64,000 nucleotides of DNA, taken from assembly GCA_050944395.1 (NCBI GenBank), contig JBMNQZ010000003.1, positions 22,244 through 86,243 of the forward strand. The letters run 5' to 3'. The notes under the pieces were generated by a model. The model was not told the origin of the DNA. It searched no databases and saw nothing but the letters and a program-made list of their open reading frames with translations. The position numbers and the translations under genes were made by a program. The stretch is from Lachnospiraceae bacterium (GTDB lineage Bacteria > Bacillota > Clostridia > Lachnospirales > Lachnospiraceae). Numbering within the stretch: position 1 is the first letter of the stretch; each line of letters opens with the position of its first letter. Of the stretch, positions 13,082-32,559 are shown piece by piece.

Positions 13082-13102
13082 ATACTTTAATTGGAGGCTT
13101 AG

Positions 13103-13171: not shown

Positions 13172-13202
13172 TCAAACGGTAATTTGATAGCAGGAGGGTA
13201 AT

Positions 13203-14607: not shown

Positions 14608-14683
14608 CGGTGATAAACCTTTTTATTATTCGGGCATTTCTTTCGAAGGCAGCCTTAATTATTTGACACCGGGGAGCCGCAAA

Positions 14684-15709: not shown

Positions 15710-15726
15710 CAAGAGGATGATTGACA

Positions 15727-17880
15727 ATGGCTTTTATTGGAAAAGGGCAGAACATTGCGCAGGTAACTACCGTTCTGATATGCGGCAGGACAGATCTGCT
15801 GTCGGAAAACTGCATAGATGTAGTATCGAATTCATACAATACTATTATTGCCGGGAAAACTTCTTTTGGCCGGAAGAAAAAAAGAGTCCATGTGTATGAG
15901 ACTCTTACTGACGACGAGAAATTCAGATGGATATTTGAGGCGTACTCCGTCGATGTCGTTTGGTATATCAGCGGATACACAGACATCGGTGAAGGACTTT
16001 ACGATGAGGTGAAAAATATCGGCAGTGTAATGGATAAATGCCGGGAATTCGGGGTTAATAAGGTTATTGTTCTGTCTTCTTTGGAGGCTCTGAACTTTCA
16101 TCCCCTGTTCGGAATAAGCAACGAGGTGATCAAAAAAATATTTGCCTCGGACAGAGCATACAATATCGCTCATTTTGAGGAAGCGGTAAGATTTTATTCC
16201 GAGAGCAAGAGTGTGAAGACAATTATCCTGAGGGCGCCTTATGTAGTCGATGACGTCAATTATGATAATTTCCTCGGAAAGATTTTCCGTCAGATGGATG
16301 AGGAAAGAAGGGTGGTTTTGCCGTACAGAGAGGAAAATCAGCTCGATTTTATCACCACAATGGATCTGGTTGAGCTTATGATGCTCATTTCCGAAGAGTA
16401 TACGGATGAGTCGGCGACCTATAATGTTTCCAGCGGATATCTCGAGACCTTCAAGTCCTTTGAGGAGGAGCTTAAGGTGCTGAATCCGGAGATAGAGGTC
16501 CGGTACGAGGCACTTCTTAATTACACCGGAGTCCAGCATTACAGTATCAATCTGAAAAAGCAGTACGGCTTTCTGCCCTCCGATAATGTATTTGCCTCAC
16601 TTCCGGAATATTATCAGAATTATAAAAAAGCATCGGGAAGGCTTAAAAAACAAAGAAGAGGGAAGCTGTTCGGGGGCAAGGTGCTGCCACTCCTGGTCAG
16701 ATATTTCGAGGTAATCTTTTTTGCACTGGTAATGCAGTTACTTTTATATCTCACCAAGGACTCCGTATATTTCAGATATGTGGACATACGCCTGTTTTAT
16801 GTGCTGGTAATGGGAACGGTACACGGAATGCAGGCCGGAATAGCAGCGGGAGGCCTGGCATGTGTATCCTTGCTTCTAAGCTTTAATTCCCTGGGGATTA
16901 CGGGGACGATGATCTTCTATAATATTGAGAACTGGCTTCCGTTTGTAATATTGCTGATGACCGGATCCATCACCGGATATGTGAGATCGGTCCATAACCA
17001 GAAAGTCACCTCGGTTGAGCGGGAGAATGAGCTGGTAAGAGAAAAGTACGTATTCTTAAATCAGGTCTATAACGGACTTATCGACAATAAGAGCAGATAC
17101 AAAAGACAGATCCTCGGGTATCAGGACAGCTTCGGAAAGATATTTGAGGCGGTTCAAAAGCTTGACAGTGCACTTCCGTCAGATATTTTCATGCACGGCA
17201 TCGGCATTTTGGAGGAGACTTTGGAAAATGATTCCGTTGCTGTATACACTCTGGATCAGAACGGCAGATACGGACGTCTCATGGCCTGCTCCGGAAAATA
17301 CATGCCGGTGCTCAAAAAATCGATCAATCTTGAGGAGCATGCCGAGCTTTTAGAGGTCACCGGTTCGGGAAAAATGTGGAAAAATTCCGAATTTGTCCGG
17401 GGTGAACCGGAGTTTGCATTCGGCATCAGAGATAAGGACAGCTTAAGGATCATCATAGCGCTCTATGAGGTCCGGGCCGATCAGAAGGGACTTTATTACG
17501 AGAATCTTTTCAGGATCCTTTGCGATCTTATCAGGCTTTCGTTCCTTCGCGCCCTTAAGTATCAGGAAGCGATCGATGATGAGAAGTATTATCCGGGAAC
17601 GGTCGTGCTGTATCCTGTTTATTACGAGGAAGCCCTTAAGGTTCAGAAGGAGATGAAAAATAACGGAATTTCCAATTACACCGAGATAAGATTTGATTCC
17701 TCGGATCCCGAGCTTGTTTACAGATTTATGAAGGGCAAAAACAGGCAGACCGATATTCTGGGATGCGGAAGTGACGGAAAGATTCATCTCATTCTTACTC
17801 AGACGGGCGAAGACAGCTTTGGATTTTTTGAAAAGAGAATGGCGGGCAGTACGATCGGTTATGAAAAGGTGGAGCAATGA
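15727..17880 (+). CDS. pelD: PelD-like protein: degenerate SDR/epimerase-like N-domain, a TM segment, and a GAF/GGDEF-like cytoplasmic region
   Basis: It sits at the head of a pelE/A/F/G-ordered cluster. The N-terminal ~300 aa are NAD-epimerase-like. Central hydrophobic helices span aa ~330-420. The C-terminal ~290 aa are soluble. The architecture matches the SDR-fused PelD described for Gram-positive pel loci. Confidence 0.6.
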   Translation: MAFIGKGQNIAQVTTVLICGRTDLLSENCIDVVSNSYNTIIAGKTSFGRKKKRVHVYETLTDDEKFRWIFEAYSVDVVWYISGYTDIGEGLYDEVKNIGSVMDKCREFGVNKVIVLSSLEALNFHPLFGISNEVIKKIFASDRAYNIAHFEEAVRFYSESKSVKTIILRAPYVVDDVNYDNFLGKIFRQMDEERRVVLPYREENQLDFITTMDLVELMMLISEEYTDESATYNVSSGYLETFKSFEEELKVLNPEIEVRYEALLNYTGVQHYSINLKKQYGFLPSDNVFASLPEYYQNYKKASGRLKKQRRGKLFGGKVLPLLVRYFEVIFFALVMQLLLYLTKDSVYFRYVDIRLFYVLVMGTVHGMQAGIAAGGLACVSLLLSFNSLGITGTMIFYNIENWLPFVILLMTGSITGYVRSVHNQKVTSVERENELVREKYVFLNQVYNGLIDNKSRYKRQILGYQDSFGKIFEAVQKLDSALPSDIFMHGIGILEETLENDSVAVYTLDQNGRYGRLMACSGKYMPVLKKSINLEEHAELLEVTGSGKMWKNSEFVRGEPEFAFGIRDKDSLRIIIALYEVRADQKGLYYENLFRILCDLIRLSFLRALKYQEAIDDEKYYPGTVVLYPVYYEEALKVQKEMKNNGISNYTEIRFDSSDPELVYRFMKGKNRQTDILGCGSDGKIHLILTQTGEDSFGFFEKRMAGSTIGYEKVEQ

Positions 17881-18884
17881 TAAAGCTGATTTTGATTCTT
17901 TTGGCAGTTCATCTGCTGGTTTGCCTTGTATGTATCATTCTTAAGGGATCGGATGTTCTGAAGTGTGAATATAATGCAATCTTCATAGAGCTTTTCGTGC
18001 CGGTATTCGGACTGGTAATTCTTCTGTTTCAGTCTCACTGCTACAGAAAAGAAAGAGAAGCGGTTCTTTATACCGGTCTGGAGAAGATGAGGGCTCAGGA
18101 TATCTATAAGAGTATTGATATGGACGATTCGGAAAATGATGATGTTGTCCCGCTGACTGAGACCATCGTTGTCAACGAGTCGAAGGTCCGCAGATCCGCC
18201 ATGATGGAGATACTGTACGATATCAATAAATCTATAAGAATGGAAGATGAGGAGGATGCCATGTCGGTGGTTCCCATCGAGGATGTCTTAAGATTGAATA
18301 CTTCCGAGGAGAAGAGAGCTGTGATCATGAATGTTCTGTACTCAAATCCGGAGTATTATGTGAAGCAGCTTTCGGAGGCGAGGAGCAATGATGATTCCGA
18401 GGTTGTTCACTATGCGGTGACCGCTCTTGTGGAGATCCAGAAGGATTTTGATATCAGGCTTCAGAATATTATCAGAAAAAGACTGGAAGATCCCGATGAC
18501 AGATCATTGATGCTGGAGTATCAGGAAGTACTTGAGAGATATATCGCAAGCGGTCTTTTGTCGGATTCGGCCAGGAAGGTACAGATCCGGAATCTCTCGG
18601 AATTTCTGGATACAAGACTTGAAAGTGAGCCGGACAACTGGAGTCTGAATCTCAAGAAGGCGCAGGCCGATCTTGAACTGGAGGACGGAGACGCCCTTGA
18701 AAATGACAGCAGACGGATCATTGAAAAGTGGCCCGAAAAGGAGAACGGCTATATTTTCCTTATTCTGAGCTGTTCACTTAAGAAAGACCGGGCGGGAATG
18801 GCAGAGATAGTGAAATTGATAGAAAAAAGAAACGTGCATCTTTCTTCGGACGGAGAAGCGGTTCTTCGTTTCTGGGATTTATAG
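17877..18884 (+). CDS. PelE-like membrane-anchored helical-repeat protein
   Basis: Two N-terminal TM helices followed by an acidic helical region. It lies between the pelD-like and pelA-like genes, and its start overlaps the pelD stop. Confidence 0.45.
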   Translation: MIKLILILLAVHLLVCLVCIILKGSDVLKCEYNAIFIELFVPVFGLVILLFQSHCYRKEREAVLYTGLEKMRAQDIYKSIDMDDSENDDVVPLTETIVVNESKVRRSAMMEILYDINKSIRMEDEEDAMSVVPIEDVLRLNTSEEKRAVIMNVLYSNPEYYVKQLSEARSNDDSEVVHYAVTALVEIQKDFDIRLQNIIRKRLEDPDDRSLMLEYQEVLERYIASGLLSDSARKVQIRNLSEFLDTRLESEPDNWSLNLKKAQADLELEDGDALENDSRRIIEKWPEKENGYIFLILSCSLKKDRAGMAEIVKLIEKRNVHLSSDGEAVLRFWDL

Positions 18885-18900
18885 AAAAAAGGAGATTGTT

Positions 18901-20730
18901 TTGGAGTCAGGGTCATTCAGATCTAAGATTACATTTTTGGGAATGCTCGGAACGGCAGCGGTCCTTATAGCGCTCACGGTCGTTCTTATTGCATTGCAGA
19001 ATAATGTAAGATATGAAAAAGGCGATTCTAAAATTGAATATCTTGATGTTGAGAAATCAGAAACGGTAGTGGAAGAGCAGGAGCCATCCACCCTTATAAT
19101 TTACGAGCAGGGTGATACCCAGTCGGAAAACGGAAGGAAATTGATGGAGGACATTCTCTCTCAGATGAAGATTCCGTATGAAGTGTGCAGCGATGCGGGG
19201 AAAGCAGAGTTTGATAAGTATTCCCGCATCGTTCTGGGAGTGACCCATATCCAGCTTATTTCCGATTGTATAACCGATCTCAAAAATTGGGTAAAAGAGG
19301 GCGGCGGACTCATGTTCCTTTACATTCCGGAGTACAGCGGCGTGTTTACCAGCATGTTTAATATGATAGGAGGAAAGGACAGCGGAGGCTCCATATCTGT
19401 GGTGGAAGGGATTCACTTCAATGAGGAGCTTCTGATAGGCAGTACTTTGAAGGATTTCCGGATAACGGATCCTTTTGAATGTTCCATGACAATGTCGCTG
19501 GAGGATGACTGCAGGGTATATATGCAGTCTGACGACGAGTATCCGGTGCCGCTTATCTGGACGCATGAATTCGGCAAGGGAATCGTCGCGGTGGACAATC
19601 TGGGAATTCTGGAAAAATCCTACAGAGGCTTTCACTGTGCGGTATATTCCCTGCTAGGCGATGCCTGCCTGTACCCGGTAATAAACGGATCTGCGTTTTA
19701 CATTGACGATTTTCCGTCCCCTGTTCCCGGGGGCAACGGTGAATATATCACACGGGATTACGGAATGTCGGTTTCCGAATTCTACACCCAGGTGTGGTGG
19801 CCGGATGTCTATAATCTGGCGGAGAAATACGGAATCAGGTACACGGGAATGGTGATCGAACAGTACTCCGATGATGTGAAAGCGCCTTTTAAGAAAAATG
19901 AGGAGACGGAAAGATATAAATATTTCGGAAATATGCTCCTTCAGGAGGGCGGAGAGATCGGTATTCACGGCTATAATCACATGCCGCTTGTGCTGGAAAA
20001 TTTTGATTACGAGGGGCAGTATGACAGCTATAAGCAGTGGAACAGCTATGACGACATGAAAGAGGGGCTTGAGGAGGTCATCTCTTTTGTACGGAGCATA
20101 TATTCGGACAGGACGATCAGTACCTATGTTCCCCCGTCAAATATTCTGTCGGAGGAGGGGCGCGGGCTTATCGCCAATGAGTTTAAGGAAATCAAAGCCA
20201 TTGCATCCGTGTACATAGAAGGTGATCTCGCGCTCGCACAGGAGTTTGACGTGGGTGAAGACGGGATAGTAAATACGCCCAGGATCATTTCAGGCTACAA
20301 CTTAAATGATTTTACGGATATTTCAGCACTTTCCGAGCTGACCTTCCACTATGTCAATACTCATTTCCAGCATCCGGACGATGTTCTTGATGAGGACAGA
20401 GGCGCGGCTCTCGGGTGGACGAAACTGATCGGAAGACTTTCCGAGTATGTGGACTGGCTTTACACCGCTGCGCCGGAGATACGAAATCTCACCGGAGCCG
20501 AGCTGGGAGCCGAAGTGCAGCGATACGACTATATCGATGTTGTAAGGCACGAAGATGAGAACGGAATGAAGGTGCATTTAAATAATTTCTATGATTCTGC
20601 CCAGTTTATTCTGAGGATAAATAACAAAGGCGGTGAGCCTTCGGTTTCGGGCGGAAAAATCACAAAGATCGGGGAGGATCTCTATCTGATAGAGGCCGAA
20701 AAAGAAGATCTGGAAATCTGTTACAGGTAG
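18901..20730 (+). CDS. pelA: PelA deacetylase-domain-like protein (CE4-like/DUF2194-type), membrane-anchored
   Basis: N-terminal TM helix. CE4-like metal-triad motifs FYIDDF and IHGYNH. It sits immediately before pelF. The TTG start is preceded by an AAGGAG RBS. Confidence 0.65.
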   Translation: MESGSFRSKITFLGMLGTAAVLIALTVVLIALQNNVRYEKGDSKIEYLDVEKSETVVEEQEPSTLIIYEQGDTQSENGRKLMEDILSQMKIPYEVCSDAGKAEFDKYSRIVLGVTHIQLISDCITDLKNWVKEGGGLMFLYIPEYSGVFTSMFNMIGGKDSGGSISVVEGIHFNEELLIGSTLKDFRITDPFECSMTMSLEDDCRVYMQSDDEYPVPLIWTHEFGKGIVAVDNLGILEKSYRGFHCAVYSLLGDACLYPVINGSAFYIDDFPSPVPGGNGEYITRDYGMSVSEFYTQVWWPDVYNLAEKYGIRYTGMVIEQYSDDVKAPFKKNEETERYKYFGNMLLQEGGEIGIHGYNHMPLVLENFDYEGQYDSYKQWNSYDDMKEGLEEVISFVRSIYSDRTISTYVPPSNILSEEGRGLIANEFKEIKAIASVYIEGDLALAQEFDVGEDGIVNTPRIISGYNLNDFTDISALSELTFHYVNTHFQHPDDVLDEDRGAALGWTKLIGRLSEYVDWLYTAAPEIRNLTGAELGAEVQRYDYIDVVRHEDENGMKVHLNNFYDSAQFILRINNKGGEPSVSGGKITKIGEDLYLIEAEKEDLEICYR

Positions 20731-20747
20731 AGACTGGAGAGGTTAAC

Positions 20748-22175
20748 GTGAGGATTTGTGTAATACTTGAGGGCTGTTATCCGTATGTGACGGGAGGCGT
20801 TTCGTCATGGATACATCAGTATATGCAGGCAATGCCGCAGCATGAGTTTGTCATCTGGGCTATAGGCGCCGATTCTTCCATAGAGGGGCAGTTTAAATAT
20901 GAATTGCCGGACAACGTGGTTGAAGTCAGGGAGATCTTTCTAAATGATGCCCTGAAGATGAATTATATTCCCAGAAAATACACATTCACTGAAGAGCAGG
21001 TAAAGGTTCTGTATGATTTTCTGAACTGCAGCAGTCCTGAATGGGAAGTTCTGTTTGATATGTACTCAAAAAATGAGATCGATCCGATGGCATTTCTGAT
21101 GAGTGAATCATTTCTTGATATCATCACGGGAATCTGCGAAAAGGAGTGTAAATACACGGCTTTTTCGGATTTTTTCCACACGATCAGGTCGATGCTCCTT
21201 CCTATATTATATATACTCAGCTCCGATGTTCCGAAGGCGGATATTTATCATGCCATAGCAACAGGGTACAGTGGGGTTCTTGCCAGGCTGGGTTCATATG
21301 TAAATCACGTTCCTTATGAGATAACGGAGCACGGTATCTATACCAGGGAGCGCGAGGAGGAGATAATCAGGGCAAGATGGGTGGATCCGGCATTTAAAAA
21401 GCTGTGGGTCAGGTTTTTCTATATGCTCTCCGATGCGGCGTATGAGAAGGCATCCATGATTACAAGTCTCTTTGCCGGGGCAAAGAAAATTCAGATCGAT
21501 ATAGGATGCGACCCGGAAAAATGCACATATATCGGCAACGGGATACACTATGACCGGTTCAGGGATATTAAGCCGAAGGAGGAGAACGGATATATTGACA
21601 TAGGTGCTGTTTTGAGGATCGCACCTATTAAGGACGTAAAGACCATGATATACAGCTTCTCCGAGGCAAAAAAGAGAGTTCCTTCAGCCAGACTCTATAT
21701 TGCGGGTCCGGAGGATGATGAGGAGTACGCAAAGGAGTGCTATGACCTGGTGAAGCAGTTGGGAACACAGGATATTTATTTTCTGGGAACCGTAAATGTA
21801 CTGGATTATCTTGGAAAATTCGATTTTACTATGCTCAGCAGCATTTCCGAGGGGATGCCTCTGGCGGTTCTGGAGTCTTTTGCCGCGGGACGCCCCTGTA
21901 TTACCACCGATGTCGGCTGCTGCAGGGAGCTGATATACAGGACTGCGGAGGATGATGATTTCGGTGAGGCCGGAATAGTTGTGCCTCCCATGCATGTACA
22001 GGCAATGTCCGATGCCATAGTGCGAATGTGCCTTAAAAAGAAAGAAAGGCAGCAGATGGCTGAGGCAGGAAGAAAAAGGGTTGAAAGATATTTTCGTCAT
22101 GAGGACATGATAAGAAAATATCAGGAAGTATATGAAGAGGTTTTCAGAAGATGGCGGGAATCGGATTCAGTTTAA
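20748..22175 (+). CDS. pelF: GT4 glycosyltransferase PelF (DUF3492 N-terminus)
   Basis: The N-terminus MRICVILEGCYPYVTGGVSSWIHQYM matches the PelF/DUF3492 signature. The C-terminal half is GT4-like (ISEGMPLAVLESFAAGRPCITTDVG). Confidence 0.88.
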   Translation: MRICVILEGCYPYVTGGVSSWIHQYMQAMPQHEFVIWAIGADSSIEGQFKYELPDNVVEVREIFLNDALKMNYIPRKYTFTEEQVKVLYDFLNCSSPEWEVLFDMYSKNEIDPMAFLMSESFLDIITGICEKECKYTAFSDFFHTIRSMLLPILYILSSDVPKADIYHAIATGYSGVLARLGSYVNHVPYEITEHGIYTREREEEIIRARWVDPAFKKLWVRFFYMLSDAAYEKASMITSLFAGAKKIQIDIGCDPEKCTYIGNGIHYDRFRDIKPKEENGYIDIGAVLRIAPIKDVKTMIYSFSEAKKRVPSARLYIAGPEDDEEYAKECYDLVKQLGTQDIYFLGTVNVLDYLGKFDFTMLSSISEGMPLAVLESFAAGRPCITTDVGCCRELIYRTAEDDDFGEAGIVVPPMHVQAMSDAIVRMCLKKKERQQMAEAGRKRVERYFRHEDMIRKYQEVYEEVFRRWRESDSV

Positions 22176-23692
22176 GAAAGCTATTCGATAAAAGCGGAGT
22201 ACTGGCGCTGTGCCGCGCATACGGATACGCGGGGGTAATCACCATAGGTCCCATGCTGCTCGGAGTTTTGCTTCTGGTCGGAATGGCGTTTATCTCGAAT
22301 ATCGGCGGACTGGATCCGCATTTAAGAGAGCTGCTCAACTGTATGCTCACTTATACTCTGCTGGGATCTCTGACGGTGACCAGCTGGTTTAATATGGGAA
22401 TAACCAGATTTGTCTCGGATATGCTGTATCAGAAAAAGAATGAAAAGATCATTCCGTCTTTCCACGGAGTGTGCAGCATCATGCTGGTGATAGGAGGCGT
22501 CGGCTACGGAATATTCCTTGCATTTTCCGGGGCAAATCTTATCAGATGCATTCTCTGCCTGTGGCTCCTCATGATCCTTATTATAGTCTGGACGGAAGTG
22601 ATCTATCTGACTGCCATAAAGGATTACAGACAGATAGTTGCCGCGTTTGCCATCTCTTTGATGGCCGGATTTCTCCTTGCTCTCATCTTTATTTTGCTGG
22701 GACTTGTATATCTTGAGACCATGCTTTTTTCGGTGATCGTAGCCTACGGAATTCTGGCTTGCTGGAATTACAGGCTTATGCTTGATTATTTTCCCAGGGC
22801 GGAGGGAAGCAATTTCTCTTTCCTGAGATGGATGGACAAATACCGAAAGCTGGTGCTGGGCGGCGGATTTTTGAATATCGGGCTTTTTTCACACCTTATT
22901 ATCATGTATTTCGGTCCACTGAGGGTTCAGGTCGAGGGACTGTTTTACGGAGCGCCCCAGTATGATGTCCCGGCACTTATCGCTTTCTTCTCGGTGCTTG
23001 TCACCACCGTGGGGTTCGTGACTTCCGTGGAGGTCAGATTTTACCCGATGTACAGCAATTATTACGGGCTTTTTAATGACAGGGGAGCGATCGGTGATAT
23101 AAAGCACGCCGGGGAGGAAATGCTGGCCGTACTGAGAAGAGAGCTGACATTTGTCGGGCACAAACAGATGTTTACGACTATATTATTTATTGTTATCATG
23201 TCCGCGCTGCTACAGACGCTGCCGCTGGGAATGTCGTCGCTTGCCATCAATATTTTCAGGTTTTTATGTGTGGGGTACGGCGCATATGCGGTGGCAAATA
23301 CCAACATGCTTATACTCCTGTATTTTGAAGACTACATGGGTGCTATGACAGGGTGTGCGCTGTTTGCCATAATAAGCACTGCCGGAACCATAGTACAGAT
23401 ATCTGTGGGGGAGGAAGGTCTGTTTGGCTTAAGCTTTATCGCCGGCGCCGTGGTGTTCTATATTTTTACGATATTGAGGCTGGAGTGGTACACCAAAAGG
23501 CTGCCGTATTTCCTGCTTTCCCGCCAGAGTGTTGTTCCGCATCCCGAAAAGGGACTGTTTGCGGCGATCGCCGGAAAGCTTGACAGGAGAGCCGAAAATA
23601 TTAGAGCAAAGAGGGAGGCCGAGCTAATAAGGCTGGCCAGAAGAGAGATGGAAAAACAGGGAATGGATCCGAAAGGAGCGTTAAAGAGTTGA
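22151..23692 (+). CDS. pelG: Pel exopolysaccharide transporter PelG (polytopic membrane protein)
   Basis: It starts MAGIGFSLRKLF, the characteristic PelG N-terminus, and has about 12 hydrophobic segments. It overlaps the pelF end. Confidence 0.85.
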   Translation: MAGIGFSLRKLFDKSGVLALCRAYGYAGVITIGPMLLGVLLLVGMAFISNIGGLDPHLRELLNCMLTYTLLGSLTVTSWFNMGITRFVSDMLYQKKNEKIIPSFHGVCSIMLVIGGVGYGIFLAFSGANLIRCILCLWLLMILIIVWTEVIYLTAIKDYRQIVAAFAISLMAGFLLALIFILLGLVYLETMLFSVIVAYGILACWNYRLMLDYFPRAEGSNFSFLRWMDKYRKLVLGGGFLNIGLFSHLIIMYFGPLRVQVEGLFYGAPQYDVPALIAFFSVLVTTVGFVTSVEVRFYPMYSNYYGLFNDRGAIGDIKHAGEEMLAVLRRELTFVGHKQMFTTILFIVIMSALLQTLPLGMSSLAINIFRFLCVGYGAYAVANTNMLILLYFEDYMGAMTGCALFAIISTAGTIVQISVGEEGLFGLSFIAGAVVFYIFTILRLEWYTKRLPYFLLSRQSVVPHPEKGLFAAIAGKLDRRAENIRAKREAELIRLARREMEKQGMDPKGALKS

Positions 23693-25503
23693 AATTTTTA
23701 AAACGGATTATTTCGATTTTTCTTGTTTTATTCATAGCCGGAGCTATGCTTACCGGATGTGCCGGAGAGAATCTGAAAGACGGTTCGGGAGGAGCCGCGG
23801 AAGGTTCCGGATCAGGGGTTTATTCCCCTGATACCATAACCAGGGATACTTCGGGGTACGAAAAGGAAACTCCCGCGGAAGGAAACATTTCAGACAATAA
23901 CATGCTGTATGCGGATGAGGACGATTCATCCGTTCTTACGATGCATCTCACGGTTTCTTCGGGTAATTCTGCGGATGGGAGCGATCATACCTGGAGAGAG
24001 ATCAATGAGCATTCCGCATATTATTATGACGATCTGGGAATAGACCGCTATCAGACGGAGGGGCTCTTAAGAATTGGCGAGGAAGGCGACGAGGAGACAT
24101 TTGGGTATGACACGGACCTCCCGAATGTGTCTGTCCAGGTCAGGGGGCAGACCTCATCAAAAAATGCCCAGAAGAATTACAAAATAAGGATAAAAAAGGG
24201 ACTGGGGAGCTTTCGTGGCCAGAGAACCCTCAATTTGAATAAACATATGACCATCGCCTACCGATTCAACAATAAGCTGGCGTATGATCTTCTTGAGGAT
24301 ATCCCTCAGCTTATGTCGGCACGCACTCAGTTTGTTCACCTTTATGTGACCGACAATACTCAGGGAGGCTCGGGGCAGGAAGAGGATTACGGTCTGTATG
24401 TGATGGTCGAGCAGATGAACAGGACTTATCTCAGGGAGCATGGCCTTGACGAGAACGGAAGAATGTACAAGGTAAACTTTTTTGAATGGTATACCTATGA
24501 TGAGATCATGGCCGATCCCGAGGACGGAAGCTTCGATCTCGATGCATTTGAGGAATATCTCGAGGTGAAGGGAAGCGATGACCATTCTACCTTGCAGGAG
24601 GTGCTTCTGAAGCTGGAGAATTATCAGATTCCGACAAAGGAGATCGTAGAAGAACACTTTAATGTCGAGAATCTGATGTACTGGGCGGCATTTCAGATAC
24701 TTATCGGAAATTATGACTCGGGAGCCAGAAACCTTTTTATCTACAGTCCGCTTAATTCGGAGCGCCTGTATTTTATAAGCTGGGACATGGACGGTGCGTT
24801 TCAGGAGAGCTATTTTAAGATGAAAAATTATAGTGAGGCCGGATCCTGGGAGCAGGGGATTACCCAGTATACCGGACTTGTGCTTTTCAGGAGAATGCTT
24901 AAAGAGCCCGAGTACAGGGATGCTTTAACTGCGGCAGTGGAGGATCTTTACCGTAATTATCTTACCCGGGAAAAGATCGAATCAAAGGTTAAGACCTATT
25001 CCGGTATTGTAGAGCAGTATCTGTTCCAGGCTCCCGATTCGGAGCGATCCCGGTTTGACACACCCGAGGAATACGAGGCACTGGCGTCTCTTATTCCCGA
25101 TGATATTGATGAAAATTACAGACAGTATCAGGAGAGTTTAAATATGCCCTGGCCGTTCTTCGTGGCGCTTCCGGAAAAGGACCACGGAAAGCTGGTATTT
25201 TCCTGGGAGTCCTCATATGACCCGGGCGGAGAAAGCGTAACATATGATTATGTGCTTGCAAGAGACTATGATTTCACCGATGTTATCACCCGGGGATCAA
25301 AGCTTGATGTTCCAAGCTTCGAGTATGATATGCTGGAACCGGGAGAATATTATTTAAAGGTTGTGGCGGAAAATGAGTCCGGATACAGGGTCGACTGTTT
25401 TGATTATCAGTCTGTATCCGGAAAAGGAAAAAAATATGGGTGCTATAAATTTTATGTACTTGAAGACGGAACTGTTTCGATATATGAGGATGGCGGTGTA
25501 TGA
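23689..25503 (+). CDS. CotH-family (atypical kinase fold) lipoprotein
   Basis: Lipobox LTGCAG. CotH-like blocks include LNLNKHMTIAYRFNNKLAYDL, FVHLYV, NYDSGARNLFIY and YFISWDMDGAF. The C-terminus is Fn3-like. The start overlaps the pelG stop. Confidence 0.8.
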   Translation: MKFLKRIISIFLVLFIAGAMLTGCAGENLKDGSGGAAEGSGSGVYSPDTITRDTSGYEKETPAEGNISDNNMLYADEDDSSVLTMHLTVSSGNSADGSDHTWREINEHSAYYYDDLGIDRYQTEGLLRIGEEGDEETFGYDTDLPNVSVQVRGQTSSKNAQKNYKIRIKKGLGSFRGQRTLNLNKHMTIAYRFNNKLAYDLLEDIPQLMSARTQFVHLYVTDNTQGGSGQEEDYGLYVMVEQMNRTYLREHGLDENGRMYKVNFFEWYTYDEIMADPEDGSFDLDAFEEYLEVKGSDDHSTLQEVLLKLENYQIPTKEIVEEHFNVENLMYWAAFQILIGNYDSGARNLFIYSPLNSERLYFISWDMDGAFQESYFKMKNYSEAGSWEQGITQYTGLVLFRRMLKEPEYRDALTAAVEDLYRNYLTREKIESKVKTYSGIVEQYLFQAPDSERSRFDTPEEYEALASLIPDDIDENYRQYQESLNMPWPFFVALPEKDHGKLVFSWESSYDPGGESVTYDYVLARDYDFTDVITRGSKLDVPSFEYDMLEPGEYYLKVVAENESGYRVDCFDYQSVSGKGKKYGCYKFYVLEDGTVSIYEDGGV

Positions 25504-27266
25504 AAAATAGAATAAAAATCATTTTGTTTTGTGCCGCCGCGGCGGTATCGACTTTCATTCTTGCGGGATGCTCCTTCCCGGGCGTGAGCCAGAACAGGAA
25601 GCTGACCGTGGATGAGGATGAGACTTTTGAAAAAGAGAGTACCGCTGCTGCGGAAATTGCAGATGACCTCAGTCTCTATGAAGGATTTGGTGATGAGGTA
25701 AAGACCGTGTATCTCACGGTCGGCAGGGGAAATGCCGAGGATGGAACGGGTTATTCCTGGAGTGAGGTGAATTCCGCTGCGGAAAATGACGATTTCTGGG
25801 AGGGAAAAGAATATCTTTGCGAGGCCGTACTTCAGTTTGGCGATGAGACTGCACCTCTTCCCGGAGAGTTCGGATATGGGGCGTTGACCGCAAACGCCAC
25901 CGTAAGGCTTCAGGGAAAGAATGCGGCGACAAGACAGCAGAAATCCTACAGAGTGTCCATAAAGGACGGCAGCGGAAATGTAAACGGAATAAAGACGCTG
26001 GTATTTTCCAAGGAGTTCTCGGATCCGCTCAGGTTTACCAATAAGCTGTGCTTTGATCTTATGCAGGGAATCCCGGGAATGATGAGCACCAGGACATCCT
26101 TTGTGCATCTTTATGTAAAAGACAAGTCCGATACCGACGACACGCTGTTTGTGGATTACGGTCTCTACACCATGATCGAGCCGATAAACAAGACTTATTT
26201 TAAAAACCGTAATCTCCCCAAAAACAGTCTTATCTATAAGGCTGAAAATTTTGATTTCGGACGTCATTCCGATGTCATTACTCAGGCTACCGACAGCAGC
26301 TACGATGAAGGTGAGTTTGAGAAGCTGCTGGAGATCAAGGGGGATACGGATCACACCAATCTGATAACGGTTTTGGATGCGGTAAATGACGAAAATGTCT
26401 CTATTTATGAGACGGTCAAAGAATATTTCGATGAGGATAATATCTATGATTATTTGGCCTTCGGACTGCTGACGGGCAATAAAGATGCCTGCCTGGATAA
26501 TTATTATCTTTACAATCCCGTGGGAACCGGAAAATTCTATTTCATTTCCTGGAATAACGGAGGGGCGCTGGATGAGGACTACGAAAATATGACTTCCTCC
26601 TCAGATCCGGAGTTCTGGAAAAAGGGGATTTTCCTGTTTTCGGACAATGTCCTCTTCAGCCGGATTCTGAAGGATGAAAAATGCCGCGAAAAGCTGGCGG
26701 AGCACGTGGATAATCTTTATGAAAATTATCTCACGAAAGAAAAAGTGGCGGAGAAAGCCTCCGATCTTAAAGAGATGGTGAAGGGCCGGATATATTCACT
26801 TCCGGATCTGACCTTTGCCAGAGTTGACGAGGAAACTTACGACAGCATCGCAGCGGGTCTTAGTGATCAGGTGGAAAGGAATTTTTATTCATTCTATGAG
26901 ACGCTTGAGCTTCCGTGGCCTTTCCATATAAAAGAGCCGGAAGGAAACGGCGGAAAAATCACCATAAACTGGGAGTCGGCGTTCCTTTACGGCGGAGAAG
27001 CCTCATATGATGTTGCGGTTGATGACGCCTGGGATTTCCAAAGTCCGATAATAAATGAGAAGGGCATGAAGGGAACGAGCCTGGACATAGGCAGCTTAAG
27101 TGAGGGACAGTATTTTGTAAAAATAACCGCCGTTTCGGGTGCGGGCGAGACAGCCGCACGCGAGTACTACAATACAGAGAAGAAGACAATGGTAGAGGGA
27201 ACATTGTGTTTCTATGTATTAGCCGACGGAAGTGCAAGGGCGCTTTACATGTATGATGAGGGGTAG
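25500..27266 (+). CDS. CotH-family lipoprotein (paralogue)
   Basis: Lipobox ILAGCS. It has the same block structure as the preceding gene (FVHLYV, YFISWNNGGAL). ATGA overlap with the upstream gene. Confidence 0.8.
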   Translation: MKNRIKIILFCAAAAVSTFILAGCSFPGVSQNRKLTVDEDETFEKESTAAAEIADDLSLYEGFGDEVKTVYLTVGRGNAEDGTGYSWSEVNSAAENDDFWEGKEYLCEAVLQFGDETAPLPGEFGYGALTANATVRLQGKNAATRQQKSYRVSIKDGSGNVNGIKTLVFSKEFSDPLRFTNKLCFDLMQGIPGMMSTRTSFVHLYVKDKSDTDDTLFVDYGLYTMIEPINKTYFKNRNLPKNSLIYKAENFDFGRHSDVITQATDSSYDEGEFEKLLEIKGDTDHTNLITVLDAVNDENVSIYETVKEYFDEDNIYDYLAFGLLTGNKDACLDNYYLYNPVGTGKFYFISWNNGGALDEDYENMTSSSDPEFWKKGIFLFSDNVLFSRILKDEKCREKLAEHVDNLYENYLTKEKVAEKASDLKEMVKGRIYSLPDLTFARVDEETYDSIAAGLSDQVERNFYSFYETLELPWPFHIKEPEGNGGKITINWESAFLYGGEASYDVAVDDAWDFQSPIINEKGMKGTSLDIGSLSEGQYFVKITAVSGAGETAAREYYNTEKKTMVEGTLCFYVLADGSARALYMYDEG

Positions 27267-27269
27267 GAT

Positions 27270-28022
27270 ATGAGAAAAAGGGTGTACAGAAATGAATGGA
27301 AATACCTGATATCGTATCCCGAGGCAAGGCTTCTTATGGACAGACTGAAGCCGTTTATGCATCTTGACGCGCATGCTTCCGACGGAGGATACCTTATAAG
27401 AAGCCTGTATTTTGACGACTGGAAAAACACGGCGTACGAAGAAAAGATTATGGGTACGATGAACAGAGTGAAGTGGAGGATAAGGATATATGATTATTCC
27501 GATAAAACCATAAACCTTGAGCGGAAGAAAAAGTCCGGGAGCTATATTTACAAAGAATCCGCACGCATAACAAGAGAGGATTTTGAGAGGATCCTGGACA
27601 ATGATTTTTCTTTTCTGCTCGATAAGGATGAAAATCTTTGCCGTGAATTCTATTTTGAGTGTATGTCGAAGGTCATGAGGCCGAAGGTTATCGTGGATTA
27701 TGAACGAGTTCCGTATGTTTTGGATGAGGGAACCGTGAGAATCACTTTCGACAGCGACGTGAGGGCGGCATACGGGAGCTTTGACATTTTTGATCCGACG
27801 CTTCCCGCTATGTATGTTCTTGAGCCTGAGAAGCTTGTTCTTGAGGTTAAATATACGGAATTCCTGCCGGACATCATAAGGCAGCTGCTGCCGCTTAGGG
27901 GGCAGGAGTTCACCGCGTTGTCGAAATATACTACCTGTTATGAGAAGGTACACCATCTGACGGATATTACATCGGGTGTTTCAAAGTCAATATTGCGAGG
28001 GAGAATCAGAGATGAGCATTAA
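27270..28022 (+). CDS. VTC (polyphosphate polymerase/triphosphate-tunnel) domain protein
   Basis: N-terminal YRNEWKYLI, with LERKKK and LEVKYT strands typical of CYTH/VTC tunnel folds. About 250 aa, the usual size for bacterial VTC proteins. Confidence 0.7.
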   Translation: MRKRVYRNEWKYLISYPEARLLMDRLKPFMHLDAHASDGGYLIRSLYFDDWKNTAYEEKIMGTMNRVKWRIRIYDYSDKTINLERKKKSGSYIYKESARITREDFERILDNDFSFLLDKDENLCREFYFECMSKVMRPKVIVDYERVPYVLDEGTVRITFDSDVRAAYGSFDIFDPTLPAMYVLEPEKLVLEVKYTEFLPDIIRQLLPLRGQEFTALSKYTTCYEKVHHLTDITSGVSKSILRGRIRDEH

Positions 28023-28695
28023 GGATGTGTTTAAAAAATCGGTACTTGAGTCGTTTACTTCAAATAACGGCATCACCATGGAGTTCGTTCTCCAGGCGGT
28101 TATCGCCATGGCAATCGCCATCGTTCTCGGAGTGATAATATTTTTTATCTACAGGCACTATTACGGCGGAGTTGTATACTCGTCTTCCTTTGCGGTCACT
28201 CTTGTCGGAATGACTGCACTGACATGTATGCTGACCCTTGCCATCAGCAGCAATATCGTTATCTCGCTTGGTATGGTCGGTGCCCTTTCAATTGTAAGAT
28301 ACAGGACAGCTATAAAGGATCCGATGGATCTTTTGTACATTTTCTGGTCGATATCGGTGGGAATCACTGTTGCGGCCAACCTGTATGTGCTTGCTGCCAT
28401 TGCCATGGTGGTCATGACGCTTATCGTGCACGTATTTTATCACAGGAGAAAAACGGGAACAATTTACATTATGGTCATTCATTATTCCGATGAGCTGGCT
28501 GAAAATGAGATCTATAAGATAATTCATACCATGAAATATCAGCTCAAGTCGAAGACTATAAGAAAAGGTGTGACCGAGATGACGATTGAGATAATGTCCA
28601 GACATAACAATACGGCATTTGTCAACCTCATTTCGGATATTGACGGAGTAAATGACGCTACTCTTATCCAGTATAACGGAGAGTATAACGGATAA
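28012..28695 (+). CDS. DUF4956-family integral membrane protein
   Basis: Several TM helices and the conserved block GALSIVRYRTAIKDPMDLLYIFWSI. ATG 28012 has a GAGGGAG RBS. It overlaps the VTC gene end. Confidence 0.7.
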   Translation: MSIKDVFKKSVLESFTSNNGITMEFVLQAVIAMAIAIVLGVIIFFIYRHYYGGVVYSSSFAVTLVGMTALTCMLTLAISSNIVISLGMVGALSIVRYRTAIKDPMDLLYIFWSISVGITVAANLYVLAAIAMVVMTLIVHVFYHRRKTGTIYIMVIHYSDELAENEIYKIIHTMKYQLKSKTIRKGVTEMTIEIMSRHNNTAFVNLISDIDGVNDATLIQYNGEYNG

Positions 28696-28697
28696 TA

Positions 28698-30140
28698 ATG
28701 GAGAAAAAGAGAAGAAGAGGGCTTATTCAGGCTCTTATTATGATAATTATGGCAGCTGCCATAGCTGTCATCCTGATATATATGATACCGGAAAGGCATC
28801 ATCTCAATGATGAGGTCGTGTATCAGGTTGATCCTTCTGTGACCGATAATCCGCTCATAGGATTTGCACCTCCGGCTGAAAATGTCGATGAATGCAGCAG
28901 GACAAATCTGGTCTTTATAAGGCTCAGGTGGGCGGACTGGGAGCCTCAGGAGGGGAAGTTTGATACGGATTACCTGAGGGAGACTTTTCATATTGATGAA
29001 TACAGCGCACAGAATAAACACTGTGTGCTGCGTTTTGTGTGCGATATTCCGGGGGAGGAGCAGCACACGGATATTCCCGAATGGGTTATGGAAAAAACAG
29101 GCGGACAGTATTATACTAATGAATACGGATCTGGCTGCATGCCTTCGTATTCCAATCCGGAATTCATCAGGCTGCATGAAAGAGCGGTGAAGGAGCTGGC
29201 AAAGTTCTTTGACGGGGATGATTTTCTTTCCTATGTGGAGCTTGGCAGTCTCGGACACTGGGGAGAGTGGCACTGCATGGATTCGGAGGGAAGAAACTGT
29301 ATGCCTGAGGAAGAGACTTTATGGGATTATGTCCTTCCCTATACAGACAATTTTACGAATTCAAGGATACTTATGAGGCGCAGCTATCAGATGGCCGGGG
29401 ACGGTGGTCTGGGATTATACAATGATATTCTGGGTGATTCCGGCGGAACCGGGGAGTGGCTGTCGTGGACAAATGAAGGCGGACAGCAGGAGCTTTCCAA
29501 GGGAAATGCGGCACTGGTGCCGATGGAGGATTTCTGGAAAAAGGCGCCGGCAGGCGGCGAGTTCTCAAGCGAGCTGAGTCCGGAGGAGTTGATGAATACC
29601 GGCCTTAGCGATATACTTGAGGAACTTGATAAGTGCCATGTTTCATTTATCGGGCCGAATTGTGCTCTGTATGATCCGGAATATTCGGCAGGGTACGAGG
29701 CATTGAAAAAAAGAATAGGGTACCGTATATATATCTCGCGTCTTGAAACAAAATTTAAGTTTGCGGAAAATGCGATCGAGGTGAGCCTTGAATGGAAAAA
29801 CGACGGAAATGCTCCTATTTACTGGGACTGGCCGGTTATGCTGAAGGTTTTTGACAGTGAGGGGAATCCTGTTTACTGGGAAAGTCTGGATATTAATTTA
29901 TCGGAGCTGGTGCCGGGTACCGTTATCAATACAAAGGCGTCTATTCCATTTACGGATGAAATCAAGGAGGGCTTTTCCATAGGTATCATGGCGGTTGACT
30001 ATGAGGAGGACGAAACCCTGACGCTTGCTATTGAGTACGACGATGAAAATTCGGATGAATCGGGAATCCCTTCGTCAATGGAGCGGATAGAAGGTGCCCA
30101 GATCGTTTACAGATATGTAAAAAATCAGAAAGGCAGTTGA
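28698..30140 (+). CDS. DUF4832-type (glycoside-hydrolase-like) membrane-anchored protein
   Basis: N-terminal TM anchor. The block ELGSLGHWGEWH is typical of DUF4832-like TIM-barrel proteins. Confidence 0.55.
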   Translation: MEKKRRRGLIQALIMIIMAAAIAVILIYMIPERHHLNDEVVYQVDPSVTDNPLIGFAPPAENVDECSRTNLVFIRLRWADWEPQEGKFDTDYLRETFHIDEYSAQNKHCVLRFVCDIPGEEQHTDIPEWVMEKTGGQYYTNEYGSGCMPSYSNPEFIRLHERAVKELAKFFDGDDFLSYVELGSLGHWGEWHCMDSEGRNCMPEEETLWDYVLPYTDNFTNSRILMRRSYQMAGDGGLGLYNDILGDSGGTGEWLSWTNEGGQQELSKGNAALVPMEDFWKKAPAGGEFSSELSPEELMNTGLSDILEELDKCHVSFIGPNCALYDPEYSAGYEALKKRIGYRIYISRLETKFKFAENAIEVSLEWKNDGNAPIYWDWPVMLKVFDSEGNPVYWESLDINLSELVPGTVINTKASIPFTDEIKEGFSIGIMAVDYEEDETLTLAIEYDDENSDESGIPSSMERIEGAQIVYRYVKNQKGS

Positions 30141-30152: not shown

Positions 30153-31952
30153 ATGAAAGAATATGTAATGGGTAACAGTGCCATTGCTCTGGGAGCGATG
30201 GCAGCGGGTGTAAATCTGGCGGCAGGATATCCGGGAACCCCATCCTCGGAGATCATTGAAACTATTGCAAAGAGACCGCATGAAGGGGTATATATTGAAT
30301 GGTCCGTGAATGAGAAAGCGGCTATGGAGGTTGCGGTAAGCGCGTCGTATTGCGGAGCCAGAACTCTCGTCACCATGAAGCAGATGGGACTTAATGTTGC
30401 AGCCGATGCGCTCATGTCCGCCGCGTATGTGGGGGTCAAGGGCGGCATGGTGGTGGTTGCGGCCGACGATCCGGGTCCGATCTCATCCCAGACTGAGCAG
30501 GATACCCGTCGGTTTGCGGATTTTGCCCGCATTCCGGTATTTGATCCGTCATCGCCGGAGGAGGCATACGAGATGATACAGGATGCTTTTGAGTGTTCTG
30601 AAAAGTACGGAACACCGGTTATTTTCAGACCCACGACCAGAGTCTGCCATGCCTATGCCTCTATTGACGTGAAGGAGGATCTCAGACCGAAGGAATATGA
30701 AGGCTTTGTAAAGGATTCGGGAAAATGGGTCATATTCCCGAGGCTTTCATATATTAACCACGGGCTGATCGAAAAGAGAAATGCGGATATCGCGGAAGAA
30801 TATTCCGATTACAGATACAACACGGCGGAGGGTGATATGGCCTCGGAAAAGGCGGTCGCTGCCTCCGGTGTGAGCTATGCCTATGTGAAGGAATGCTTAA
30901 AGGACATTCCGGGAGTAAGGCTCGTAAGGATCGCGTCGGCTTTTCCGTTTCCGGAGAGCTTTGCCCTCGATGCGTTTAAGGGCGTCAAAGAAGTACTCTG
31001 CTTCGAGGAACTCAGCCCCTATATCGAGGAGCAGCTTTTGAAGCTTGCGGGAAAGCATCATCTTGATCTCTGCGTCAGAGGAAAACTGACAGGGGATCTT
31101 CCGGTAAACGGAGAGTATGGAGCCGACATGGCTTTCGATGTCCTTGGAAGATTTTTGGGGACAGATAATTTGAGGGGAGGCATTGACATTTCGGATGCGC
31201 CCTCCCTGCCTCAAAGACCGCCCGTACTTTGTGCCGGATGTCCTCACAGGGCGTCCTTCTATGCCGTAAAGCAGGCTATGAAGGGCAGAAAATCGGTATT
31301 TTGCGGGGATATCGGATGCTATACCCTGGGAAATGCAATGCCGCTTGATATGGTGGATACCTGCCTTTGTATGGGAGCGGGAATCACAATGGCCCAGGGC
31401 CTCGGAAGAATGGAGAAGGATACGATCTGCTTTGCCTTCGTGGGAGATTCCACCTTCTTTGCTTCGGGAATGACCGGGATAGTGAATGCCGTCTACAATG
31501 ATGCCGATATGGTTCTGTGTGTGCTGGACAATTCGACCACTGCAATGACGGGACATCAGCCCCATCCCGGAACCGGGAAGAATATGATGGGCGGAATAGT
31601 GGAAAAGGTCAGTATAGAGAAAATTCTGGAGGCTGTCGGCGTCAAAAAGATCGTAACGGCAGATCCGCTCGATCTGAAGAAATCGGTGAGCGCGGTGAAG
31701 GAATGTGCGGATATCAGAGGAGTTACGGCAGTTATCTTCAAATCTCCGTGTATAGCGATTGAAAAGTCCCGCAAAAAATGCGAGGTGGGACAAAAGTGTA
31801 TAGGATGTAAAAAATGTATACGCGAAATAGGCTGTCCGGCGCTTGTGTCAGATAACGGAAGGGTCTGTATCGATCCGGGACTTTGCACCGGATGCGGCCT
31901 GTGTGCACAGATCTGCCCTGTGGATGCGATCGGAGGTGTCTCAAATGAATAA
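30153..31952 (+). CDS. iorA: Indolepyruvate:ferredoxin oxidoreductase subunit alpha
   Basis: N-terminus GNSAIALGAMAAGVNLAAGYPGTPSSEI. TPP-binding region GDSTFFASG. C-terminal 2x[4Fe-4S] ferredoxin motifs (CIGCKKCIREIGCP and CTGCGLCAQICP). Confidence 0.88.
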   Translation: MKEYVMGNSAIALGAMAAGVNLAAGYPGTPSSEIIETIAKRPHEGVYIEWSVNEKAAMEVAVSASYCGARTLVTMKQMGLNVAADALMSAAYVGVKGGMVVVAADDPGPISSQTEQDTRRFADFARIPVFDPSSPEEAYEMIQDAFECSEKYGTPVIFRPTTRVCHAYASIDVKEDLRPKEYEGFVKDSGKWVIFPRLSYINHGLIEKRNADIAEEYSDYRYNTAEGDMASEKAVAASGVSYAYVKECLKDIPGVRLVRIASAFPFPESFALDAFKGVKEVLCFEELSPYIEEQLLKLAGKHHLDLCVRGKLTGDLPVNGEYGADMAFDVLGRFLGTDNLRGGIDISDAPSLPQRPPVLCAGCPHRASFYAVKQAMKGRKSVFCGDIGCYTLGNAMPLDMVDTCLCMGAGITMAQGLGRMEKDTICFAFVGDSTFFASGMTGIVNAVYNDADMVLCVLDNSTTAMTGHQPHPGTGKNMMGGIVEKVSIEKILEAVGVKKIVTADPLDLKKSVSAVKECADIRGVTAVIFKSPCIAIEKSRKKCEVGQKCIGCKKCIREIGCPALVSDNGRVCIDPGLCTGCGLCAQICPVDAIGGVSNE

Positions 31953-32559
31953 GGATATTTTGATCTGCGGAGTGGGCGGTCAGGGAACCGTTATGATATC
32001 AAAGATCATTGCGGCGGCCGCCATGAAGGAAGGAAACCGTGTGCATTCAGCGGAGACTATAGGAATGGCGCAGCGCGGAGGTCCGGTGACGAGTCATGTA
32101 AGAGTCGGAAACGAAGCGTTTTCACCACTCGTTCCCTTTGGAAGTGCTGATGTTCTCATCGCTTTTGAACCTGCTGAGGCGGTAAGGAACCTCAGATATT
32201 TAAAGCCGGACGGGGCTGCCGTGGTAAACACCGGGGCGGTAAAGCCCGTCACCGAATCCTTGCTTGAAACAGGCTATGACGGCAGGGAAATGATTGAATA
32301 TCTCAGAGGAAAATGCAATGCGATATTTGTAGATGCCGGACTTGAATCGTCAAAGGCGGGATCCGAAAAATTCTTTAATGTGGTTATTTTAGGGACTGCT
32401 GCCGGGACGGGATATCTCGGGATCGACAAGGATACGATCCTTGCTCAGATAGATGATCTTCTTGAGGGAAGAGGCGCTCTTGCAAAAGCGAACAGGGAAG
32501 CTTTTCTCATAGGCTATGAGATTGGAAAACAAAGTGCAGATGAAAGGGGACAGAAGTGA
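31945..32559 (+). CDS. iorB: Indolepyruvate:ferredoxin oxidoreductase subunit beta
   Basis: It starts MNKDILICGVGGQGTV at ATG 31945, overlapping the iorA stop. The longer track ORF starting at 31843 overlaps iorA and is rejected. Confidence 0.85.
   Translation: MNKDILICGVGGQGTVMISKIIAAAAMKEGNRVHSAETIGMAQRGGPVTSHVRVGNEAFSPLVPFGSADVLIAFEPAEAVRNLRYLKPDGAAVVNTGAVKPVTESLLETGYDGREMIEYLRGKCNAIFVDAGLESSKAGSEKFFNVVILGTAAGTGYLGIDKDTILAQIDDLLEGRGALAKANREAFLIGYEIGKQSADERGQK

Follow-up and report, generated by a model that had tools for sequence, protein, structure and literature searches.

In streptococci and clostridia the Gram-positive Pel synthase genes pelDEA(DA)FG are contiguous with what Whitfield et al. 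described in 2020 as a second accessory gene group, consisting of cotH, a poly-phosphate polymerase gene (PPP), DUF4956 and DUF4832, and the presence of this group correlates with an extra epimerase domain on PelD (PMC7112168). The four accessory genes of Streptococcus intermedius, SIR_1594 to SIR_1591, were each deleted in a subsequent study (mBio 2025; PMC12345266), and none of them is required for Pel synthesis. Deletion of the CotH gene SIR_1594 lowers Pel and deletion of the DUF4956 gene SIR_1592 raises it, either of these two deletions leaves aggregation in artificial sputum medium at less than half its original level, and no reduction of aggregation was reported for deletion of the VTC gene SIR_1593. 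Purified SIR_1591, the DUF4832 protein, is as effective as the PelA hydrolase domain in dispersing Pel aggregates, and the same paper states that the accessory synteny is not found outside the Pel locus. Here we analyze a stretch of 64,000 nt from a Lachnospiraceae bacterium (GCA_050944395.1, contig JBMNQZ010000003.1, positions 22,244–86,243, forward strand; hereafter the window), in which five plus-strand open reading frames (ORFs) follow pelG in the order CotH1, CotH2, VTC, DUF4956 and DUF4832. It is nearly certain that this locus is the accessory block already described for the Pel exopolysaccharide operon of Gram-positive bacteria.

Two of the encoded families have relatives that have been studied biochemically. 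Characterized CotH proteins are Ser/Thr protein kinases with ATP as donor and proteins as substrates, and either D228Q or D251A inactivates the Bacillus subtilis enzyme (PMC7821199). Cryo-electron microscopy of the yeast VTC complex identified nine residues of Vtc4 that are needed for polyphosphate (polyP) synthesis, among which K458 separates active Vtc4 from inactive Vtc2/3 (preprint, 10.1101/2023.01.27.525886). Literature searches on DUF4956, on CotH together with polyphosphate, and on bacterial triphosphate tunnel metalloenzyme (TTM) polyP polymerases found no mechanistic study.

The genes of the window are arranged as follows.

pelD-like, pelE-position, pelA_DA, pelF and pelG: 15721..23692, + strand, Gram-positive Pel synthase operon, followed by the accessory module
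CotH1: 23689..25503, + strand, Pfam CotH match (E 9.5e-62)
CotH2: 25500..27266, + strand, Pfam CotH match (E 1.6e-52)
VTC: 27270..28022, + strand, Pfam VTC match (E 2.4e-36)
DUF4956: 28012..28695 (upstream alternative start at 27976), + strand, Pfam DUF4956 match (E 1.4e-10)
DUF4832: 28698..30140, + strand, Pfam DUF4832 match (E 9.6e-18)

An earlier note on this DNA, made from the letters and their translations, had placed five overlapping or nearly abutting genes after pelG: two paralogous CotH lipoproteins, a cytoplasmic VTC protein, a polytopic DUF4956 protein whose start overlaps the VTC stop, and a membrane-anchored DUF4832 protein resembling glycoside hydrolases (GH). That description holds in all these respects, and the coordinates are confirmed. 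The series is packed tightly on the plus strand from 15.7 to 30.1 kb, with overlaps of 4 nt between pelG and CotH1 (TTGA), 4 nt between CotH1 and CotH2 (ATGA) and, with ATG 28012 as the DUF4956 start, 11 nt between VTC and DUF4956; gaps of 3 nt and 2 nt separate CotH2 from VTC and DUF4956 from DUF4832. A purine-rich stretch like a ribosome-binding site precedes the downstream gene at each junction. The pelD, E, A_DA, F and G genes are all present, in order and on one strand. In Pfam, PelA_DA matches DUF2194 (E 5e-150), PelF matches DUF3492 and GT1 (E 3e-79), and PelG matches its own family (E 2e-121). The pelE-position gene has no Pfam match; its homologues hold the equivalent place in the related loci L001–L080 described below, in which the pel gene order of the window recurs. 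No NCBIfam model matches any of the five accessory proteins. The window thus displays the features by which PMC7112168 defined the accessory group, in that the genes are contiguous and downstream of pelG and the PelD-like product (719 aa) has an N-terminal epimerase domain (PF01370, residues 56–236), although the epimerase domain matches weakly, with 24.1 bits (E 2.7e-5) where the cut-off is 20.9. The remark in the earlier note that no function had been shown for this combination is outdated, since the combination was already described in 2020 and its genes were deleted, and so partly tested, in 2025; a claim of novelty is not supported. What is new in the window is small, namely a duplicated CotH with a degenerate second copy in an otherwise known operon type.

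The linkage of these genes was evaluated by scanning one genome per species, which returned at least 596 relatives of VTC; the best 80 loci, from 80 species genomes, were analyzed by searching their ORFs with the window proteins, and the counts given for pel loci refer to those with enough sequence. Represented among these 80 are Lachnospiraceae, Oscillospiraceae, Faecalibacterium, Streptococcus oricebi and many Collinsella. Co-occurrence is very strong: CotH is adjacent to VTC in 72/73 loci, DUF4956 directly follows VTC in all 76 of 76, and PelG is present in 63 of 65, with the CotH-VTC-DUF4956 block following pelG in these 63 across several bacterial classes. DUF4832 is present in 18/68 loci and two full-length CotH genes occur in 7/80. 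These counts define CotH-VTC-DUF4956 as the conserved core, to which DUF4832 and a second CotH are optional additions, and linkage of this strength far exceeds what chance would give. Three species have PelG and CotH joined in a single protein of 1092–1093 aa (L005:4907-8188, L007:4901-8182 and L026:4925-8203), in which a KKKRRR-type stretch is followed by the CotH signal peptide and lipobox, kept inside the chain as a hydrophobic segment. In these fusions the former signal peptide would serve as an extra transmembrane (TM) helix, placing CotH at the outer face of the membrane beside the exporter.

The three-gene core is not confined to pel loci. All four matches to VTC in the plasmid collection carry VTC, DUF4956 and CotH. 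Planococcus plasmid NZ_CP059541 encodes VTC, DUF4956, CotH, a 689-aa protein, a HEAT-repeat protein and a family 2 glycosyltransferase (GT2) in succession (L081:5389-12824), and the layout of NELoc-2 in Clostridium perfringens equals it; there the gene after each VTC is annotated 'tubulin/FtsZ' (PMC2879425), which by its position we infer to be DUF4956. On Pseudobutyrivibrio plasmid pNP95 the trio lies within a GT2/GT4/acyltransferase/pyruvyltransferase polysaccharide cluster, and in Nonomuraea, in an 11.85 Mb record filed as a plasmid, the trio genes are adjacent in a stretch without annotated features. The fourth match, E. faecalis plasmid LR962858 (L084:6575-13119), carries an N-acetylmuramoyl-L-alanine amidase gene, VTC, DUF4956, a response regulator, a histidine kinase and CotH. 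A metagenome scan seeded with a four-sequence alignment of Planococcus-type VTC returned 80 loci, among which DUF4956 directly follows VTC in nearly all and VTC, DUF4956 and CotH follow one another in 47 of the 50 with room; no pel gene was found in any of them. Single-sequence phmmer with the window CotH missed the non-pel CotH genes, which a profile hidden Markov model found. The commonest extended layout is VTC-DUF4956-CotH-X689-HEAT-GT2, exact in 24 of 36 long loci and in more with minor variants; this six-gene layout occurs in dozens of metagenome contigs (L086–L164, for example L095, L104 and L120). Its GT2 is most like the poly-N-acetylglucosamine (PNAG) synthase PgaC/IcaA (TIGR03937, E 2e-42, below the equivalog cut-off), and its protein of about 690 aa (X689) has no Pfam or NCBIfam match. 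The plasmid and metagenome loci indicate that the trio is a portable unit paired mainly with synthases of N-acetylhexosamine (HexNAc) polymers, and they contradict the statement of PMC12345266 that the synteny is limited to the Pel locus.

The VTC protein of the window has 250 aa and consists of the VTC domain alone (PF09359, 125.9 bits against a cut-off of 23). It has no hydrophobic segment and is thus assigned to the cytoplasm, and neither an SPX domain nor a VTC-type TM domain was found by Pfam or hydrophobicity. Searches of solved structures with the single sequence, and with a profile of close relatives, gave no Protein Data Bank (PDB) match; a diverse VTC profile that includes members of 24–38% identity matches yeast Vtc4 (3G3Q) with E 3e-14. 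All nine of the Vtc4 catalytic residues are present: in natural Vtc4 numbering, K200, R264, R266, K281, Y359, R361, E426, S457 and K458 correspond to K11, R70, R72, K86, Y144, R146, E192, S218 and K219, respectively, where the mapping of E192, S218 and K219 relies on a weak second HMMER segment together with identical E-x-K and S-K motifs. The nine positions are invariant across the diverse alignment, even in relatives of only 24–26% identity. The family is large, with 6549 relatives in the database at E ≤1e-5 and 4688 representatives of 50%-identity clusters at E ≤1e-3; natural VTC-DUF4956 fusions were sought among the cluster representatives and none was found. Many VTC proteins (for example P0374, P0393 and P0378) have N-terminal extensions of 140–390 residues that are rich in Pro, Gln and Arg, apparently disordered and without a Pfam domain, and these may be genuine or may come from ORFs called too long.

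For DUF4956, the start at ATG 28012 rather than the upstream GTG gives a product of 227 aa, a choice supported by the finding that nearly all listed homologues are also 227 aa long. In the AlphaFold2 (AF2) model (pLDDT 76) an amphipathic helix at the N-terminus is followed by five TM helices and, at the C-terminus, by an ACT-like domain of beta-alpha-beta-beta-alpha-beta topology. Foldseek matches the C-terminal domain to ACT and NikR C-domains (E ~1e-3) and finds no solved relative of the TM part. The most conserved motif lies between TM3 and TM4 and reads G-A-L-S-I-V-R96-x-R98-T-A-x-K102-D-P-x-D106, within which R96-x-R98-x-x-x-K102-D is invariant. The C-terminal domain, like the basic stretch that follows TM5, is expected on the cytoplasmic side, and on this assumption the loop bearing R96, R98 and K102 would be on the cytoplasmic side, where the tunnel of VTC could dock. 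A match to MgtC (PF02308) is below threshold, at 20.4 bits against a cut-off of 31.4.

At the N-termini of both CotH1 and CotH2, basic residues lead into a hydrophobic run and then a lipobox (MLTGC in CotH1 and ILAGC in CotH2), the elements of lipoprotein-type signal peptides. Both score far above the PF08757 cut-off of 23.8 bits, at 209.8 and 179.5 bits. A search of solved structures with the single sequence of CotH1 gave no match, and a profile including distant members was needed: one built from pel-locus and non-pel CotH proteins matches Bacillus cereus CotH (PDB 5JD9) with E 7e-30. By profile search the C-terminal ~90 residues of CotH1 match fibronectin type III (Fn3) domains, such as titin Fn3. 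The active site of CotH1 is complete. D343 and D366 are the equivalents of the catalytic D228 and the metal-binding D251 of B. subtilis, with the same 23-residue spacing in both proteins, and K162, E241, N341, D343, N348, D366 and D368 are all conserved, giving a complete kinase signature. The full K-E-N-D-N-D-D signature is found in 84 of 87 informative CotH ORFs from the 80 pel loci. CotH2 is a paralogue, 34% identical to CotH1, that keeps the catalytic Asp (D329) and has WNNG in place of WDxD (N352 and G354; codons 351–354, ~26550–26561), and so lacks the D251 equivalent of an active kinase. It is the only one of the 87 ORFs to read K-E-N-D-N-N-G. Since loss of the metal-binding Asp by D251A is inactivating in B. 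subtilis (PMC7821199), CotH2 is probably a pseudokinase or an altered enzyme. The earlier note had treated the pair as equivalent kinases, but only CotH1 keeps both Asp residues.

The AF2 model of the DUF4832 protein (pLDDT 91) shows an N-terminal TM helix (residues 2–34), a (beta/alpha)8 barrel and a C-terminal beta-sandwich. Its best Foldseek matches in the PDB are a GH5 endoglycoceramidase, GH35 beta-galactosidases, GH30 xylanases and a GH14 beta-amylase (E ~1e-8), and E190 and E288, invariant in 47 DUF4832 homologues, are candidates for the catalytic acid/base and nucleophile glutamates. DUF4832 is the only Pfam match of the protein, with none to PelA_H; it would be a functional substitute for PelA_H and not a homologue. 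The clan GH-A-like barrel of the model, together with the activity of S. intermedius SIR_1591 from a related streptococcal locus on Pel aggregates (PMC12345266), makes a membrane-anchored extracytoplasmic Pel hydrolase the probable identity of this protein, and lends support to the earlier suggestion that DUF4832 replaces the missing Pel hydrolase.

The interpretation offered in the earlier note is supported in part, and the anatomy of these genes plausibly fits a system that makes and exports polyphosphate to feed a surface kinase. In the version that we favor, tentatively and at clearly less than an even chance, VTC makes polyP, DUF4956 conducts it outward or gates its exit, and CotH uses this donor outside the cell on the polymer or on a surface protein. 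Working on the cytoplasmic face of the membrane, VTC would convert ATP into polyphosphate. The invariant basic loop of DUF4956, on the cytoplasmic side, would take the chain and pass it across the membrane or gate its passage. CotH1, located beside the exporter PelG, would then phosphorylate nascent Pel or a surface protein with polyP as donor, and this phosphorylation would tune the amount of polymer retained on the cell and its stickiness. CotH2 in the window would probably be a non-catalytic partner, its catalytic metal ligand being lost, and the optional DUF4832 hydrolase would stand in for the PelA hydrolase domain by trimming or releasing Pel. Since ATP is scarce extracellularly, an exported polyP donor would solve the resulting donor problem for CotH. 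The position of the trio beside two synthases of HexNAc polymers (Pel and the PgaC/IcaA-like GT2) and inside a third exopolysaccharide cluster speaks for this reading, as do the intact VTC residues, the constant pairing of DUF4956 with VTC, the complete signature of CotH1, the CotH signal peptides and PelG-CotH fusions, and the changes of Pel level and aggregation on deletion of CotH or DUF4956 in S. intermedius (PMC12345266). The more general proposal that VTC, DUF4956 and CotH form a self-contained extracellular phosphorylation system, in which exported polyP is the donor for modification of Pel/PNAG-like amino-sugar polymers or surface proteins, appears to us rather unlikely.

Several points weigh against polyP export to a surface kinase. 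We know of no precedent for a CotH enzyme that depends on polyP or is directed at glycans, and similar tunnel residues are also found in TTM enzymes that work as triphosphatases or cyclases. No characterized bacterial VTC-domain protein was found in the literature search. DUF4956 matches no VTC chain among solved structures by sequence or by fold; it can therefore be at most an analogue of the yeast VTC channel, and a channel role for it is conjecture. On the E. faecalis plasmid the trio is accompanied by an amidase and a two-component system, with no obvious polysaccharide synthase nearby. The characterized CotH kinases use ATP and phosphorylate proteins (PMC7821199). The genetic data from S. 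intermedius also argue against a simple linear pathway, given that no aggregation phenotype was reported for deletion of VTC (PMC12345266). Deletions of CotH and DUF4956 shift Pel in opposite directions, whereas a linear pathway predicts similar phenotypes unless another source of polyP compensates.

The opposite effects of these two deletions (PMC12345266) are what regulators would produce, and a regulatory kinase was the proposal of Whitfield et al. On that account, to which we would give a minor though real share of the probability, an ATP-using CotH phosphorylates the Pel machinery or a surface protein and so controls Pel where control by cyclic di-GMP (c-di-GMP) is weak, while VTC and an MgtC-like, ACT-bearing DUF4956 relay the phosphate or energy status of the cell and no polyP is exported. 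Known CotH enzymes being Ser/Thr protein kinases, the ACT-like ligand-binding domain and weak MgtC match of DUF4956, the response regulator and histidine kinase interleaved with the trio in the E. faecalis locus, and the HD-GYP genes found upstream both in the window and in three trio loci without pel genes all agree with it; the PelG-CotH fusions fit a kinase acting on the Pel machinery as well. However, there is no evident supply of ATP for an extracytoplasmic lipoprotein kinase, and the account leaves unexplained why, across more than 120 loci of differing context, a catalytically complete VTC is invariably accompanied by the kinase and membrane protein genes. In Pseudomonas, extracellular DNA is a polyanionic cross-linker of Pel, and polyP, likewise a polyanion, could by analogy be secreted by VTC and DUF4956 to cross-link HexNAc polymers (Pel, PNAG-like) that are partly deacetylated and cationic, with CotH anchoring or transferring the chain and not acting as a classical kinase. 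Both main partner systems of the trio are indeed HexNAc polymer synthases, the pel locus also encodes the deacetylase PelA_DA, the catalytic residues of VTC are intact, and deletion of DUF4956 lowers aggregation despite more Pel being detected (PMC12345266). A structural role for polyP nonetheless seems improbable to us, as no reduction of aggregation was reported for the S. intermedius VTC deletion (PMC12345266) and the full kinase signature in 84/87 informative CotH ORFs argues for catalysis.

It is similarly improbable that the VTC-domain protein is a non-polymerase TTM, either a triphosphatase or an enzyme that produces or consumes a small phosphorylated molecule, and that the substrate of the trio is something other than polyP. 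Diverse reactions are catalyzed by TTM enzymes that share the tunnel and many of its basic residues (PMC4641920), no assayed bacterial VTC-domain enzyme emerged from the literature search, and the window protein lacks the SPX and VTC-type TM domains; but its match is specifically to Vtc4 and includes the S-K pair (S457, K458) with the lysine that distinguishes Vtc4. There remains the trivial account that the five genes happen to neighbor pelG and are functionally unrelated to it. Close spacing is by itself weak evidence, because genes resembling ior and PaaK follow DUF4832 after only 12 nt with no terminator. Synteny nevertheless refutes this account and leaves it a negligible probability, since the accessory block follows pelG in 63/65 loci and is fused to PelG in three, and the ior genes were found in none of these loci. 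Of the readings considered, the polyP donor scheme ties the observations together best, at the tentative level given above.

The flanks of the pel region contain further genes. Directly upstream of pelD, at 14591–15709, is an HD-GYP gene with an N-terminal hydrophobic region; a terminator-like hairpin at 14565–14598 overlaps its predicted GTG start, which may for that reason be mis-set. Three of the non-pel trio loci likewise have HD-GYP homologues upstream of VTC (L110:185, L136:3868 and L155:3711), hinting at a shared nucleotide-signaling input. Just upstream of the pel region, at 12029–14399, are radical-SAM and hydF genes that resemble [FeFe]-hydrogenase maturation genes. On the other side, at 30153–33797, are iorA and iorB (indolepyruvate:ferredoxin oxidoreductase-like) and a gene resembling PaaK, a phenylacetate-CoA ligase; iorA starts 12 nt past the DUF4832 stop, and no terminator-like site lies in between. 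The ior and paaK genes were considered as part of the module and rejected, for they are beside it in 0/80 related loci, and they may simply be read through. GC skew is positive nearly throughout the window (1–64000), the cumulative skew climbs steadily, and all genes examined between 12 and 36 kb are on the plus strand, as expected for a leading-strand segment.

As a discovery the locus is modest, being another example of a published operon type. Its value lies in the question of what the trio does, and the unit to study is the core of three genes; this core is portable, occurring in polysaccharide loci of at least three kinds, and is not Pel-specific. The portability of the trio, the conservation of the VTC and CotH catalytic residues across phyla, and the natural PelG-CotH fusions that place the kinase at the exporter make the function of the trio more testable. 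The hosts are abundant gut anaerobes (Lachnospiraceae, Oscillospiraceae and Collinsella) and streptococci, and the system could affect their aggregation and interaction with the host. If the trio is indeed a self-contained extracellular phosphorylation system, its polyP synthase/translocase would be the first of VTC type in bacteria, and its extracytoplasmic kinase the first to be driven by polyP.

Comparison with known systems places these proteins in families that are familiar individually. The VTC protein shares with the yeast VTC complex a homologous tunnel domain (E 3e-14) in which the nine catalytic residues are kept, and it too is always paired with a membrane protein. It differs from the yeast complex in having no SPX domain and no VTC-type TM domain, and its membrane partner is a separate protein with five TM helices and an ACT-like domain; the likeness to coupled polyP synthesis and translocation by yeast VTC is only an analogy. 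The architecture that defines MgtC consists of five TM helices and, after them, a cytoplasmic ACT-like domain at the C-terminus (PMC12345266). DUF4956, with five predicted TM helices and a cytoplasmic ACT-like domain, resembles MgtC/SapB in architecture only and falls below the Pfam threshold. The CotH proteins belong to the fold family of the Bacillus spore-coat kinase (5JD9), and CotH1 keeps its catalytic Asp, its metal-binding Asp and the Lys and Glu of the N-terminal part. In contrast to Bacillus CotH, the window proteins are predicted to be exported lipoproteins with an added Fn3 domain, occur in a polysaccharide and not a sporulation context, and are only ~15–20% identical to it, with CotH2 degenerate.

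At the level of gene organization, the VTC-DUF4956-CotH-X689-HEAT-GT2 operon is like the window in that the three-gene unit stands beside a synthase of HexNAc-type polymers, but there VTC comes first and CotH last within the trio, pel genes are absent, and the partners are a PgaC/IcaA-like GT2, a HEAT-repeat protein and the ~690-aa protein. The closest relationship is with the block of PMC7112168 and SIR_1594–1591, which has the identical genes in identical order contiguous with pelG and a PelD with an N-terminal epimerase domain. One streptococcal locus (L012) has a layout like that of the window, with CotH, VTC and DUF4956 proteins that are 43–61% identical. The window differs from the published block in carrying two CotH genes, as do 7/80 related loci, and in a second copy that is unique in having lost the metal-binding Asp.

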